IMG/VR virus record: IMGVR_UViG_2574180227_000018
DNA: 6,635 nucleotides
Reading direction: 5' to 3' (one strand)
Source: a virus
Taxonomy: Duplodnaviria > Heunggongvirae > Uroviricota > Caudoviricetes
Of the stretch, positions 2,404 to 6,635 are shown piece after piece. Below the pieces are notes generated by a model, which was given only the letters and a program-made list of their open reading frames with translations, made no database searches and was not told where the DNA came from. The translations under genes and the position numbers were made by a program. The stretch's first letter is position 1. Every line of letters begins with the position of its first letter.

Positions 2404-2440
2404 TCCCGCCAGCCATATCATGACCGGCGGGATTTTTTTT
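2404..2440 (+). terminator. Intrinsic terminator-like hairpin, + strand orientation (7-bp GC stem, T8 tract)
   Basis: tcccgcc, a 15-nt loop, ggcggga, then tttttttt (2433-2440). On the minus strand the hairpin sits just after the esterase stop but has no following U-tract. Confidence 0.4.
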
Positions 2441-4478
2441 ATTCTGTTACCGCTTTTTTCACTTCCACCACAATGCTGTCAATCAGCACCGGGTAAGTTG
2501 CATTTTTGGTGATATCCGTTACGCGGAGTTTGTCCACCGGGAAAGTTCCTACTGGTGACTGCGTCAGGGTAAACGCGGCACCATCCTGACCATCAATAAC
2601 CGGAATAACCTGAAGGCTGTTATTTCCTGCAAAACGGAAGGCCAGCGTATGCCATTCATTATCAAATACACCAAAGGTTCCCAGTTTCTGGTTATTTGTT
2701 GCCACTTTTGCATTGTGGTGCATCACATTCAGGTCTTTTGCGTCTGTCTGGATGTAGAACGATGCCAGCAGATTATTCCCTGCATCCCCTGTCAGGGTGA
2801 CACCCTGCGGCAGAGAGGAAACCGGCCAGTAAAGCGCCATGACATACTGGTTTGCCACCAGGTCGCCAGGTACTTTAAAACGACAACTGATTAAACCACC
2901 ATTTTTCAGCAGTTCAGCACCAGTACCGGCATCATGATCCAGATACCAGGATGATTTACCTGTTTCCTTGGTCAGTTTCATTGCCTTACCACCTGTGCCT
3001 CCTGCATCACTGATAATTTCAGCTTTACCGCCAGCCGGCTCCCAGCCCTGGGCTTTCAGATTTCCTTCTGACTCACTGACACGGTAAGACAGCAGTGTTG
3101 TGGTTACTGCTTCAGTTTCTGAAGGTGACGGCACTGGTGCTTCAGTTTCAGAAGATGGAACATCGGCTTTTACTGTGGTTCGCCCTGCATGAGTCAGAAC
3201 AGCCGTGGCCAGACGGTCGGAAATAATCCCACGACGTGCCCATGAACTGAAATGGCTGGCCCGGCCCGCAGATGTCCAGGTGGCGGCACTGTTACGCCAC
3301 GTTGAGCCGTAATAACCAATGGATTCAATATCCGGGTCTTCTGTCGGATTGTTGGTGGGTACATTCGCGCCATTTTCATCTGTCATTAATGGGACGAAAT
3401 GAATGTTTTTATCTGTTTTATTTTTGTAGCCGTCATAGATTGCCTGGTATGCCTGTTCGTTTTTCTGTTTCCAGAAATACGTGGTATCGCCACAAATCCA
3501 CGGAACGCCAGCAGCACTGCCACCGGTACACTGTTCCGCCTGTTCAGCCAAGTCTGCGCGGAATTTTTCCACCATCGCCAGAAACAGCGCGGAATGCTCC
3601 GTCGGCTTCGCATCAATATCAAACTCGCCCTGCATCCACACCACAGCAAGCAGGCGGTTTTTCGGGTTCTTCGCCAGTGCCGCTTTTGTCCGGCTGATTA
3701 AGTCCTTATACAGCGGCTTATCCACACCCCAGCGGGCTGAGTCCTCTGAAGCACCCGTGCTGTCACTGTACGTGCCGTCAGCACCCGCCGTGAATGCAGA
3801 ACCACCACGGCAGCAGGGAACCAGCAGAATCCCCGCATCTGCCGGAATAAACGGCAGCAGTTTTTTGGCAATGTGAAGCCCCTGACCCACGGTGCCATAT
3901 TGCCCTTTAGCCACATCCGCTTTCGGGTGATTTTTTCCACTCATATCCTGCACATCATGCAGACAGTGGTCGGCCAGAATGATGTCGTTATACTGACAGG
4001 CTTTACCTCCCGGCGTGACTGTACTGCGACGGGCTAACTGCATAATACGCGGTTCGGGGTGGTCATATGTCTCCGGCAGCGGCAGACCTTCACCGTAGGC
4101 CATCCCGTTTGACTGACCAGCAAGAACCACCACGTAATACCAGGAAGGGGAGCTGGAAGCAGTTTCATTTCCTGACGGACGGGTATGTGTTTCAGCATTA
4201 TCCCAGTCTGACGGTTCAGCAGTACCGGCAACATCAGCACTTAACGGAATGACAGCACCAATACCCGCACCGGTAATTTCCACGCTCGGATCACCGGATA
4301 CTGGCCTTACCCACAGGCAATCCCGTGTATTAAAACTGATGAGACAGTCAGCAAATGTCATTCCTCCTTTTGTTTCGGCCGGAGGAAAGGGAGCCTCAAG
4401 AAATGCCGCTGTACCACCGGAAACTTTAACAGTAAAGTTTCCGGGCATTGATGATAGTTGAACCCATTTGGACGTCAT
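2439..4478 (-). CDS. SGNH/SASA-family carbohydrate esterase (sialate O-acetylesterase-like, prophage NanS-p-like architecture), 679 aa, three domains
   Basis: GQSN catalytic-serine motif in VVVLAGQSNGMAYGEG and a downstream WMQGEFD block, typical of sialate O-acetylesterase/SASA domains. About 110 aa of N-terminal domain, a Ser/Pro/Glu/Thr linker with tandem SETEA repeats, and about 250 aa of C-terminal Gly/Thr-rich, probably beta-rich domain. No signal peptide. ATG at 4478. Confidence 0.8.
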   Translation of the reverse strand: MTSKWVQLSSMPGNFTVKVSGGTAAFLEAPFPPAETKGGMTFADCLISFNTRDCLWVRPVSGDPSVEITGAGIGAVIPLSADVAGTAEPSDWDNAETHTRPSGNETASSSPSWYYVVVLAGQSNGMAYGEGLPLPETYDHPEPRIMQLARRSTVTPGGKACQYNDIILADHCLHDVQDMSGKNHPKADVAKGQYGTVGQGLHIAKKLLPFIPADAGILLVPCCRGGSAFTAGADGTYSDSTGASEDSARWGVDKPLYKDLISRTKAALAKNPKNRLLAVVWMQGEFDIDAKPTEHSALFLAMVEKFRADLAEQAEQCTGGSAAGVPWICGDTTYFWKQKNEQAYQAIYDGYKNKTDKNIHFVPLMTDENGANVPTNNPTEDPDIESIGYYGSTWRNSAATWTSAGRASHFSSWARRGIISDRLATAVLTHAGRTTVKADVPSSETEAPVPSPSETEAVTTTLLSYRVSESEGNLKAQGWEPAGGKAEIISDAGGTGGKAMKLTKETGKSSWYLDHDAGTGAELLKNGGLISCRFKVPGDLVANQYVMALYWPVSSLPQGVTLTGDAGNNLLASFYIQTDAKDLNVMHHNAKVATNNQKLGTFGVFDNEWHTLAFRFAGNNSLQVIPVIDGQDGAAFTLTQSPVGTFPVDKLRVTDITKNATYPVLIDSIVVEVKKAVTE

Positions 4479-4577: not shown

Positions 4578-5138
4578 TTATTTTTCCGAAACGCTCGCAG
4601 GATAATAACGATAAAGGGTTGAAAGGCCGATATCAAAAATAAGTGCCACCTGTCTTCGGCTGACACCCCCGGCCAGTAAACGCCCGACCTGCTCGTATTG
4701 TTCCTGCGTGAGACGACGGGGTCTGCCGCCGGTTCGTCCCCTTTCACGGGCAGCAGCAAGACCAGCCCGTGTCCGTTCGACAATCAATTCACGCTCCATT
4801 TCTGCCAGCGCACCCATTATGTGAAAAAAGAAGCGCCCCATGGGGGTTGACGTATCAATGTTGTCAGTAAGACTACGAAAATTTATCCCCTGTTGCTGTA
4901 ATTCATCTGTCAGCGCAACAAGGTGGCGCATACTGCGCCCCAGCCTGTCCAGTTTCCAGACCATCAGTGTGTCGCCGGGTTTTAGTTTCTTCAGTGCCCG
5001 CTTCAGTCCCGGCCGCTGCGTCGTTTTACCACTCATTTTGTCTTCAAAAATCTGCTCACATCCTGCACATTCCAGCGCATTTCTTTGTAAACCTGTGTTC
5101 TGGTCATTTGTTGATACGCGTATATAGCCAATCAGCAT
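4578..5138 (-). CDS. pin: Serine recombinase, DNA invertase of the Pin/Gin/Hin/Cin family, 186 aa
   Basis: N-terminus MLIGYIRVSTNDQNTGLQ carries the catalytic Ser motif. Resolvase-type catalytic domain (VWKLDRLGRS, MGALAEMERELI) and C-terminal HTH (GGVSRRQVALIFDIGLSTLYRY). SD AAGGAAGG 7 nt upstream of the ATG. Immediately adjacent to an inverted-repeat-bounded segment. Confidence 0.95.
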   Translation of the reverse strand: MLIGYIRVSTNDQNTGLQRNALECAGCEQIFEDKMSGKTTQRPGLKRALKKLKPGDTLMVWKLDRLGRSMRHLVALTDELQQQGINFRSLTDNIDTSTPMGRFFFHIMGALAEMERELIVERTRAGLAAARERGRTGGRPRRLTQEQYEQVGRLLAGGVSRRQVALIFDIGLSTLYRYYPASVSEK

Positions 5139-5192
5139 GTATTTACCTTCCTTAAAAAGAGGTGGAAATGCTTTTTAAAGCAGATATACGGC

Positions 5193-5218
5193 ATCCCTGA
5201 AACCTCGGTTTACGGGAA
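5193..5218. other. Left inversion crossover site (gix/pix-like: two 12-bp half-sites around central TC at 5205-5206)
   Basis: atccctgaaacc tc ggtttacgggaa is an imperfect palindrome resembling the gix/hix core (AAACC-TC-GGTTT). An identical 26-bp copy lies inverted at the right edge. Confidence 0.7.
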
Positions 5219-5226
5219 ACGGTAAA
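5201..5226. repeat. Inverted repeat, left arm (26 bp, perfect match to reverse complement of 6610-6635)
   Basis: aacctcggtttacgggaaacggtaaa compared by eye with the reverse complement of the last 26 bases of the window. Confidence 0.85.
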
Positions 5227-5587
5227 CAGGGCGGCGAATGCCCTGCCATCGAACGGAACGGCCGTTGCCGCGAACAGGCTGGCAAATGCCCACACAATTA
5301 ATGGTGTTCCCTTTGACGGAACGCAGGATATCAACATTACCTCCGGTATGACCGAAGCTGCTGCTGATAACAAATACGTTCGCAACGTTCAGCTTGGTGC
5401 CCAGAGTTACCATTCACCCGGAGGTAATGAAATGTCCTGGAGTTATGGCGCGCCTTCCGGTTGTATGCTTTCAGGTATTAACGTGCAGGAGACCGGGAGA
5501 AATTCAGCCGATAATATCGGAGGCGTTTATTACCGTCCGGTGCAGATATATATCGGTAATGCCTGGCGCACAGTTTCATCCGTCTGA
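5201..5587 (+). CDS. Silent alternative tail-fiber C-terminal cassette (Sv'-like); no start of its own in this orientation
   Basis: Open frame begins right after a TGA at 5198-5200 and runs through the recombination site to the stop at 5585-5587. The encoded NLGLRETVNRAANALPSNGTAVAANRLA...INGVPFDGTQDINITSGM... parallels the minus-strand fiber C-terminus (NLGLRETVNKAADALPSGGTAVAANRLA...INGVPFDGTRDINITSGM...), and the ends are similar (VYYRPVQIYIGNAW versus VYYRQIQYCINGNW). Confidence 0.7.
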   Translation, partial: NLGLRETVNRAANALPSNGTAVAANRLANAHTINGVPFDGTQDINITSGMTEAAADNKYVRNVQLGAQSYHSPGGNEMSWSYGAPSGCMLSGINVQETGRNSADNIGGVYYRPVQIYIGNAWRTVSSV

Positions 5588-5595
5588 TTAAAGGA

Positions 5596-5618
5596 AAAGG
5601 GTGCGATAAGCACCCTTT
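5596..5618. terminator. Bidirectional terminator hairpin between the convergent Sv' cassette and tfa (9-bp stem, 5-nt loop)
   Basis: aaagggtgc gataa gcacccttt. On the minus strand it directly follows the tfa stop and is followed by a UUUUCCUUU tract. Confidence 0.6.
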
Positions 5619-5621
5619 ACG

Positions 5622-6164
5622 TTATTCAGGCTTCTCCGGCCATTTAATGTCGTCAAATTCAGCTTTGTTTTTAATCGCTGGTAGTTCCATTTTTTTCACC
5701 TGACTGATGTATGCCATCCATCGGGTAAGTGCGGCTCTGTCTTCATCACTGATGGTGCCCAGCTGTAATTCTGTTCTCCAGTCATTAATTTTTTCATATG
5801 CCTGATTAAGATATGACTGGCGCATTGCTTCCAGTTTTCTTGCGTAGTTAACCGGAATACGGGAGATCACGCCATTATCAAACTTCCAGTTACCCGAAAT
5901 ATCAGCACCTTCAGGGAGTTCGTCGACTTCAACCACAGAGAACCCCGCAGGATACAGCGCCGAAGCGTCCTGTGATATTGAGCAGATAATGCCGCTGTCA
6001 GGTGTTATACAAAGTTTATATTTTTTTGTGAATAATGGCAGGGACTCGTAGAAATCCTTACCATCTTCACTCTGAAAATACTGTACATCATTACCATAGA
6101 GGGTATTTTCCGGGTAATATCGTTTAACATTAATCAGTTGCATAAACATCACCATGTGAATCAA
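5622..6164 (-). CDS. tfa: Tail fiber assembly protein (Tfa chaperone; P2 G / Mu U / lambda Tfa family); probable start at ATG 6143
   Basis: C-terminal region LGTISDEDRAALTRWMAYISQV...DIKWPEKPE resembles the conserved Tfa C-terminus (lambda Tfa ends ...PDIEWPAVP), with SEDGKDFYE and ADISGNWKFDNGVI blocks upstream. The ORF-track start at 6164 is a TTG without SD; ATG 6143 has a GGTGA SD. Confidence 0.85.
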   Translation of the reverse strand: MIHMVMFMQLINVKRYYPENTLYGNDVQYFQSEDGKDFYESLPLFTKKYKLCITPDSGIICSISQDASALYPAGFSVVEVDELPEGADISGNWKFDNGVISRIPVNYARKLEAMRQSYLNQAYEKINDWRTELQLGTISDEDRAALTRWMAYISQVKKMELPAIKNKAEFDDIKWPEKPE

Positions 6165-6263
6165 TGATAAAAACAGGAATAATACTATCGCTATATACGG
6201 ACAGGGGTTGTCTGAGATAACGCATATATCAGGCGCTGCCTGCCGTACGCCATGAGCCGTTAA

Positions 6264-6635
6264 TTAAATACTTGCAGCGGATACCCAATTCCCATTAATA
6301 CAATATTGTATCTGTCTGTAATAAACACGGTCATCACCACCACGCATTTCCCAGTCTCCGTCAGTCTTAAAACCGGTAATCACATTTCCTGATGACAGGG
6401 AGTAATTATATTCCAGTACGCCGCTTAATGCCTGCGCTCCCAGTCTTACCCCTGTAACATAACGCTGATTGGCCGTTGATTCCGGCATTCCTGACGTAAT
6501 GTTTATATCCCGCGTCCCGTCGAAAGGAACACCATTAATATTTCTTGGGGTGGCGAGTCTGTTTGCTGCCACGGCGGTTCCCCCCGATGGCAGGGCATCA
6601 GCGGCCTTATTTACCGTTTCCCGTAAACCGAGGTT
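6264..6635 (-). CDS. Tail fiber protein, C-terminal variable part (Sv-like), 5'-truncated by the window edge; currently expressed orientation
   Basis: The reading frame is open from the last base of the window through the inverted repeat to the stop at 6264-6266. The ORF-track GTG at 6572 is internal. Homologous to the + strand cassette. Confidence 0.8.
   Translation of the reverse strand, partial: NLGLRETVNKAADALPSGGTAVAANRLATPRNINGVPFDGTRDINITSGMPESTANQRYVTGVRLGAQALSGVLEYNYSLSSGNVITGFKTDGDWEMRGGDDRVYYRQIQYCINGNWVSAASI
6610..6635. repeat. Inverted repeat, right arm (26 bp), part of the right inversion site, which continues past the window edge
   Basis: Reverse complement equals 5201-5226. 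The predicted crossover dinucleotide is at 6630-6631, so the outer half-site lies beyond the window. Confidence 0.85.

Follow-up and report, generated by a model that had tools for sequence, protein, structure and literature searches.

The G segment of phage Mu and its invertase Gin, together with their counterparts in D108 and SfMu, follow the order of fibre constant part, site, segment, site, an invertase that reads outward 67 bp further on, and then com. The Mu segment is 3.06 kb long, its perfect repeat is reported as 34 bp, its variable fibre parts are about 320-335 amino acids long, and it holds the two tail-fibre assembly chaperone genes U and U', with a gap of 2 nt before the chaperone gene (tfa). 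The P1/P7 C segment with Cin and the Salmonella Hin/hix system likewise have 26-bp sites and an invertase of the Fis/enhancer-dependent family, the P1 segment being far larger with two tfa genes, and Hin controlling a flagellin promoter and no fibre coding sequence. The e14 P segment of Escherichia coli K-12 with its invertase PinE lies in a lambdoid context and, like the pix-type locus of enteropathogenic E. coli (EPEC) E2348/69, contains two convergent tfa genes. In Mu, SfMu, P1 and e14 there is one chaperone per cassette, 1-3 nt after the fibre stop codon. The locus described here lies in a stretch of 6,635 nt of Caudoviricetes DNA (IMG/VR record IMGVR_UViG_2574180227_000018; the whole stretch is referred to as the window), keeps the gene order of Mu, and very probably serves a Mu-like E. 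coli prophage as its host-range switch, a homologue of the Mu G segment with Gin. Its segment is reduced to 1.43 kb, its perfect repeat to 26 bp and its variable fibre parts to 121-126 amino acids, and a single tfa follows a spacer of 120 nt. Short fibres and small segments (1.8-1.9 kb) are also found in the e14 type, whose pix core in e14 and EPEC E2348/69 (AAACCTTGGTTTGGGAGAA) differs from the gix-like core observed here (AAACCTCGGTTTACGGGAA). Judged by site sequence, fibre homology and prophage context, the closest system is Mu G/Gin.

Both orientations of the segment were observed among near-identical prophages. After positions 5201-6635 were flipped in silico, the window differed from the prophage of E. 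coli SW070917 (L001) by 2 mismatches in 6635 bases, and BLAST placed 5201-6635 at 100% identity on one strand of that prophage and the flanks on the other, with the break falling exactly at 5201. A second pair, L006 and the O157:H7 locus L004, likewise holds one element in its two orientations: once one of them is flipped, 32 mismatches remain in 6975 bases, and a one-base difference between the arms confines the exchange in this pair to a core of 17 bp (AACCTCGGTTTACGGGA) that holds the central TC. In both pairs the flip boundaries fall within the left recombination site, and one breakpoint has been used in two independent lineages, represented by the window with L001 and by L006 with L004. 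A census of 5426 complete E. coli genomes at a coverage of at least 80% recovered 12 genomes oriented as the window and 15 flipped. The exact sequence of the window in its own orientation was not found among complete E. coli genomes, where the best match of the same orientation reached 94.6%. The comparison of genomes indicates that the segment inverts naturally, and the two orientations that the first-pass annotation had proposed to look for in a population are represented by both pairs and by the census.

The window contains a perfect inverted repeat of exactly 26 bp, whereas the longest perfect inverted repeat in 100 dinucleotide-preserving shuffles averaged 13.6 bp and was at no time above 22; analytically, about 5e-9 inverted repeats of at least 26 bp would be expected. 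Beyond the 26 bp the repeat is imperfect, with 83% identity over about 150 bp (stretches of 83 nt and 60 nt, each at 83%), since the N-terminal part common to the two fibre cassettes is encoded in both arms, and the 1.43 kb between the arms comprises two opposed fibre C-terminal cassettes and one tfa. Two 26-bp sites were recognized in inverted orientation, each composed of imperfect 12-bp half-sites around the same 2-bp crossover, as in the invertase family. The inner half of the left site is nearly the same as that of Mu gixL (TTATCCAAAACC-TC-GGTTTACAGGAA), and the next 14 nt into the segment are identical, or nearly so, to those of Mu; the centre of this site is separated from the start codon of the invertase by 67 bp, the same distance as in Mu. 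The outer half-sites of the left and right sites are unlike each other. The right site is cut by the edge of the window, as the first-pass annotation had stated, although its outer half does not lie entirely outside, since 4 nt of it are inside; the part beyond the window is ATCGATAA, as read from positions 7994-8006 of L001, and the outer half in that near-identical prophage is TTATCGATAACC. In L001 and in strain STEC2018-607 (L002) the right site is complete, with the central dinucleotide TC/GA as in Mu gix. The coordinates of all features are collected in Table 1.

Table 1. Features of the window, with positions counted from its first nucleotide.
Feature	Position	Strand	Remarks
Serine DNA invertase, Gin/Cin/Pin/Hin family, 186 amino acids	4578-5138	minus	Pfam Resolvase 1.4e-51, HTH_7 1.7e-14
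Candidate recombinational enhancer, two Fis-type 15-mers	5054-5117	minus	Predicted function
Candidate Fis 15-mer GTATCAACAAATGAC	5103-5117		Centre 96 bp from site centre; identical in Mu gin
Candidate Fis 15-mer GTGCAGGATGTGAGC	5054-5068		Centre 145 bp from site centre; one base differs from Mu gin
Invertase-proximal 26-bp gix-type site	5193-5218		ATCCCTGAAACC-TC-GGTTTACGGGAA, central TC at 5205-5206; aligned with Mu gixL
Left arm of the perfect 26-bp inverted repeat	5201-5226
Cassette A, silent fibre C-terminus, 126 amino acids	5207-5587	plus	P2-H/SfMu-S'-type tip, without its own tfa; PHROG_1833 tail fibre 2.3e-52
GC-rich hairpin between convergent stop codons	5591-5623		Followed on the minus strand by UUUUCCUUU (U-run); folds of -18.9 and -24.7 kcal/mol, z -2.7 and -3.7
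tfa, single tail-fibre assembly chaperone, 173 amino acids	5622-6143	minus	Downstream of cassette B; Caudo_TAP 3.2e-19, PHROG_136 1e-54
Untranslated spacer, 120 nt	6144-6263	minus	From the cassette B stop to the tfa start
Cassette B, expressed fibre C-terminus, 123 amino acids in the window	6264-6635	minus	Mu-S-type tip; frame open to the window edge
Right arm of the perfect 26-bp inverted repeat	6610-6635
Fibre-proximal site, truncated	6618-6635		TTCCCGTAAACC-GA-GGTT; the window ends after 4 nt of the outer half
Dcm-type C5 DNA cytosine methyltransferase	1-1053	minus	GTG start; at the position of mom
com, Mu-type	1022-1207	minus
Two open reading frames	1322-1492 and 1593-1787	plus	The latter with Cys-pair motifs; L001 counterpart annotated as frameshifted
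DUF826 gene	1826-2071	minus
DUF1378 gene	2107-2289	minus
679-amino-acid protein, SGNH/SASA carbohydrate-esterase domain and C-terminal DUF6645	2439-4478	minus	PHROG_143 (unknown function)

The two arms of the fibre switch exhibit different tips on a common frame. Both cassettes read through the site in one frame (NLGLRETVN...), so that their C-termini are swapped on a constant N-terminus, and the recombination site lies at the same protein position as in Mu S (FIDNLGLRETVN here, FIQNLGLQETVN in Mu). The constant part, read from L001, shows 41% identity to residues 1-191 of Mu S; the full fibre comprises 317 amino acids in its reconstructed B form and 322 in its A form, against 504 in Mu S, and about 240 central residues of the Mu variable part (Sv) are absent. 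The two cassettes are 49% identical overall and their tips 29% identical over the last 75 amino acids. The tip of cassette B (the last ~75 residues) is 56% identical to the receptor-binding tip of Mu S (PDB 5YVQ_A, 5.5e-22) and 41% identical to the P1 Sv' tip, while the tip of cassette A matches the phiTE short fibre (PDB 9CUY, 8e-16) and shares 56-58% identity with the P2-like H and SfMu S' tips. This resemblance to different known tips, Mu S on one side and P2 H or SfMu S' on the other, suggests different receptors. In the window the frame of cassette A is closed upstream by a TGA at 5198-5200, just beyond the site, and in L001 the same cassette is joined to the fibre gene, where the full A form is annotated. 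For cassette B, the open reading frame of the B-form fibre is intact in relatives of the same orientation (298 amino acids in L006 and 297 in L002). Both cassettes match the C-terminal part of PHROG_1833, a tail-fibre profile of 322 positions, and the fibre family is therefore already present in databases. The ratio of nonsynonymous to synonymous divergence (dN/dS) is 0.06-0.10 for the A tip, at a dS of 0.6-1.6, and 0.23 for the B tip, and cassette A is intact in all relatives examined; both cassettes are under purifying selection, which is strong for A, and cassette A is not decaying.

Several claims of the first-pass annotation concerned these arrangements. The perfect 26-bp inverted repeat with a gix-like core, the two diverged and opposed cassettes within about 1.43 kb, and the adjacent serine invertase were all found as it had reported them. 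It had further proposed that a fibre gene comes in from the right and continues in frame into the minus-strand cassette, with that cassette and tfa as the expressed pair, and had named a stop codon immediately outside position 6635 as one observation that would speak against its reading; the 317-amino-acid fibre reconstructed from L001 agrees with the proposal, as no such stop exists and the frame stays open for 194 more codons to an ATG. The assignment to the Mu G, P1 C and e14 P type stands for the switch itself and fails for the full Sv-U/Sv'-U' pair, since one tfa is present. As for the label of Pin-type invertase, the silent sites of the first 33 codons do resemble those of pin (pS 0.18), but the closest system is Mu G/Gin and not e14 Pin.

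The invertase finds its best PDB matches in the solved Gin structures (3UJ3/4M6F, 2e-91) and is nearly equidistant from Mu Gin (75% identity) and e14 PinE (72%). The catalytic Ser9 is kept, and the RVS9T and DRLGR motifs align with those of Gin. Also present and aligned with Gin are K46/R47/K50 (GLKRALK), the basic residues of helix B, and Q150/R153/L154 (EQVGRLL), residues of helix 1; the Hin counterparts of these residues are numbered one higher. The Hin residues K47/R48/K51 and Q151/R154/L155 are conserved uniquely in Fis/enhancer-dependent invertases (McLean et al., PMC3798978). The two candidate Fis 15-mers are of the G-N13-C type, lie within invertase codons 8-28 and occupy the same positions in Mu gin; their core blocks TCAACAAATGACCAGAA and TGTGCAGGATG are invariant, silent positions included, in four invertase genes (window, L005, pinE and gin), and the native Hin enhancer is also located about 100 bp from hixL. 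Differential silent-site divergence was observed along the gene, as codons 2-33 diverge less than the rest in several pairs, such as the window and pinE (0.18 in codons 2-33 against ~0.75 in the rest of the gene), whereas in comparisons with Mu the divergence of these codons is merely marginally lower. This conservation points to a Gin/Hin-type invertasome that would depend on Fis and an enhancer.

In the proposed mechanism, the 186-residue invertase would bind two inverted gix-type 26-bp sites, one within the tail-fibre gene at the boundary of its constant and variable parts and the other 67 bp upstream of the invertase start, would cut at the central TC/GA dinucleotide and would invert the intervening 1.43 kb, most likely in a Fis-bound enhancer complex on the first ~30 invertase codons by analogy with Gin and Hin. 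Each inversion would exchange the last 121-126 residues of a short Mu-S-like fibre (317 or 322 amino acids) and thereby give it either of the two receptor-binding tips. In the orientation of the window, the fibre operon would read cassette B and tfa and then reach the hairpin with its U-run, with cassette A silent. The A and B forms are expected to differ in receptor specificity.

The tfa gene distinguishes this locus from the known switches. Its product matches Mu U (PDB 5YVQ_B, 2.3e-17) and is 32-33% identical to Mu U and U'. The rule of the classical segments, a chaperone behind each C-terminus, does not hold, as one tfa is present, behind cassette B, and downstream of cassette A no plus-strand open reading frame of at least 40 amino acids was found in the window; a single tfa is likewise present in L002, L004, L005, L006 and L017. 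The A-type cassette is without a tfa in every relative examined, namely L002, L004/L006 and L017 (LC727881), and the silent cassette of L005 is A-like; this layout is kept across relatives at 84-94% identity and with different partner tips. The spacer before tfa measures 51-121 nt in all members of this family, against 1-5 nt in Mu, SfMu, P2-like phages, e14 and Pectobacterium phage POP15. Scans of the window and three relatives for an internal sigma-70 promoter of tfa gave no consistent site on the right strand, with counts equal to those of shuffled sequence, and the spacer showed no likeness to a Mu C-dependent late-promoter motif when compared with Pmom or with the upstream region of the window's own com. 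In the A-on orientation tfa is antisense to the fibre operon. On the other side of the gene, the hairpin at the convergent stop codons with its U-run is likely to be the terminator after tfa, and equivalent hairpins are found in L006 and L017.

Two types of tfa were observed, each following two diverged tips: type 1 (window, with L005 90% identical) follows tips B and C, which are 25% identical to each other, and type 2 (L006, with L017 96.5% identical) follows tips B and D, which are 38% identical to each other. On these pairings the Tfa chaperone looks promiscuous. The two types are 75% identical in their N-terminal and 48% in their C-terminal part; the conserved N-terminal domain was considered as a sign of a shared partner and rejected, as Mu U and U' show the same pattern (72% and 38%). 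That one promiscuous Tfa serves both tips, giving these Mu-like prophages a minimal host-range switch, would fit these pairings, the selection on cassette A and the spacer, and is put forward tentatively and with less than even confidence; tfa would have to be expressed in either orientation, with the conserved 51-121-nt spacer before it as a possible source. Alternatively, the P2-H-type A tip may be independent of a chaperone here, or the A state may be non-productive.

Some observations weigh against the host-range switch. The inversion is deduced from the comparison of genomes, cassette A is without a tfa although the related tips in P2-like phages, SfMu and Pectobacterium phage POP15 each lie directly 5' of one, and the case for Fis dependence consists of sequence conservation, with 49 bp between the two 15-mers here against 48 bp between the Fis sites of Hin. 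The missing chaperone leads to the reading that the segment flips while infectious phage arises from the B orientation alone, the A fibre being misfolded without a chaperone, so that the locus would represent an on/off switch or a decaying relic. The single tfa, which lies antisense to the fibre operon when A is expressed, agrees with such a reading, as do the constant company of an adjacent tfa at A-type tips elsewhere and the lack of any promoter signal above chance upstream of tfa. It is nevertheless judged unlikely, since the A tip evolves at a dN/dS of only 0.06-0.10 at a dS of 0.6-1.6 and is intact in all relatives examined, the A-on state is at least as common as B-on (15 against 12 genomes), and the tfa-less A-type layout is conserved among relatives of 84-94% identity with different partner tips.

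The orientation differences might also have come about without the invertase, by RecA-dependent recombination between the inverted arms or by assembly error. The arms do offer about 150 bp at 83% and 26 perfect bp for recombination, and the acting enzyme cannot be told from sequence alone; the exchange between L004 and L006, however, took place within 17 identical bp that hold the gix central dinucleotide. RecA-mediated exchange needs roughly 25 bp or more for efficiency, and the 17-bp interval is too short for it and falls at the cut position of the Gin family. As the two independent lineages share their breakpoint, canonical sites adjoin an intact Gin homologue that keeps the catalytic serine, and assemblers are not misled by a repeat as short as 26 bp, an origin by RecA or by assembly is considered very improbable. 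With the host-range switch preferred over both alternatives, the element works like the Mu G/Gin switch in a variant gene layout that lacks the paired chaperones.

A description of the one-tfa layout, or of inversion in Sp18-type prophages, was not found in the literature searched, where EPEC E2348/69 (PMC4272514) was the only experimentally confirmed inversion of a 'Mu prophage' found. At the pix-type loci of e14 and EPEC E2348/69 both orientations coexist in clonal cultures (PMC4272514). The phase-variable 'Mu' locus of EPEC E2348/69 was considered as an experimental precedent and rejected as a different system, built on pix sites, with a pair of tfa genes and an invertase that is truncated. 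As to distribution outside E. coli, scanning a single genome of each species with the 322-amino-acid fibre gave no more than 9 weak partial matches, and the fibre family therefore lives in the strain-level diversity of E. coli. The inversion mechanism itself is well established and the value of the locus is practical and modest: it offers a clean, naturally validated example of a Gin-type switch at work in prophages common among pathogenic E. coli, O157:H7 and other Shiga toxin-producing E. coli (STEC) included, and the silent cassette of such loci is routinely misannotated as a 'hypothetical protein' or a pseudogene. The compact fibre of ~320 amino acids with a swappable tip of ~75 amino acids, together with the apparently promiscuous chaperone, forms a natural scaffold on which receptor-binding tips may be studied or engineered. 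The chaperone-less cassette A under strong purifying selection raises a small, testable question on Tfa specificity, and a shared Tfa or a chaperone-independent A tip, if true, would bear on the usual view of one adjacent Tfa per tip.

Differential histories were also observed for the parts of the fibre locus. In the first ~30 codons of the cassettes (window 5207-5300 and 6540-6635; L002, L004 and L006), variants such as NRAANALPSNG and NKAADALPSGG are exchanged between the arms, indicating gene conversion between the inverted arms. The window and L002 form a mosaic in which dS is ~1.1 for the A tip, 0.06 for the invertase and 0 for the B tip, and the tfa of L006 is 64% identical to that of the window although the adjoining B tip is nearly the same; tips and chaperones have been traded as separate modules. 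In STEC2018-607 the intact B-form fibre reading frame of 297 amino acids (L002 9766-10661, minus strand) is unannotated, short spurious 'hypothetical proteins' are called in its place, and the silent cassette is labelled a pseudogene, which represents a recurrent annotation artefact at invertible fibre loci.

The window corresponds to the reverse-complemented right end of a Mu-like prophage, with the order of Mu-type baseplate genes, fibre, invertible segment, invertase, three cargo genes, com and DNA methylase; upstream of the fibre, L001 carries the tape measure, a DNA circularization protein, baseplate V, gp46, gp47 and a YmfQ-family protein. The region conforms to a Mu-type late region and right end with com present, and differs from Mu in the three cargo genes between invertase and com and in the replacement of mom by the C5 methylase, mom being kept in L002. 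The com gene overlaps the GTG start of the methylase by 32 nt, and the GUG start is paired in a hairpin (CCCCAC-N20-GUGGGG) with the Shine-Dalgarno sequence in its loop, a design as in the translation-inhibition stem of Mu mom. In L002, where mom is genuine, the sequence hardly differs from that of the window across com, the hairpin and the first ~5 codons and diverges after that; Com-dependent translational control therefore seems to have passed to the methylase.

Among the cargo genes, that of the 679-amino-acid esterase-domain protein stands directly downstream of the invertase, and every relative examined has it at this position. The protein has two copies of a SETEAP-type linker (30-nt direct repeat, 3108-3157) and might deacetylate surface glycans, as a virion-associated enzyme or as a factor of lysogenic conversion. 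The DUF826 and DUF1378 genes belong to families typical of lambdoid prophages and are carried here by a Mu-like element, as cargo between its invertase and com. The two plus-strand open reading frames near com are probably a pseudogene, because their L001 counterpart is annotated as frameshifted. In SW070917 the element adjoins lambdoid tail genes and an ompC copy (L001 14795-17435), and in LC727881 and LC727895 it is located inside Shiga toxin (Stx)-converting phages; the presence of Mu-like elements inside other prophages is consistent with Mu-type transposition into resident prophages.

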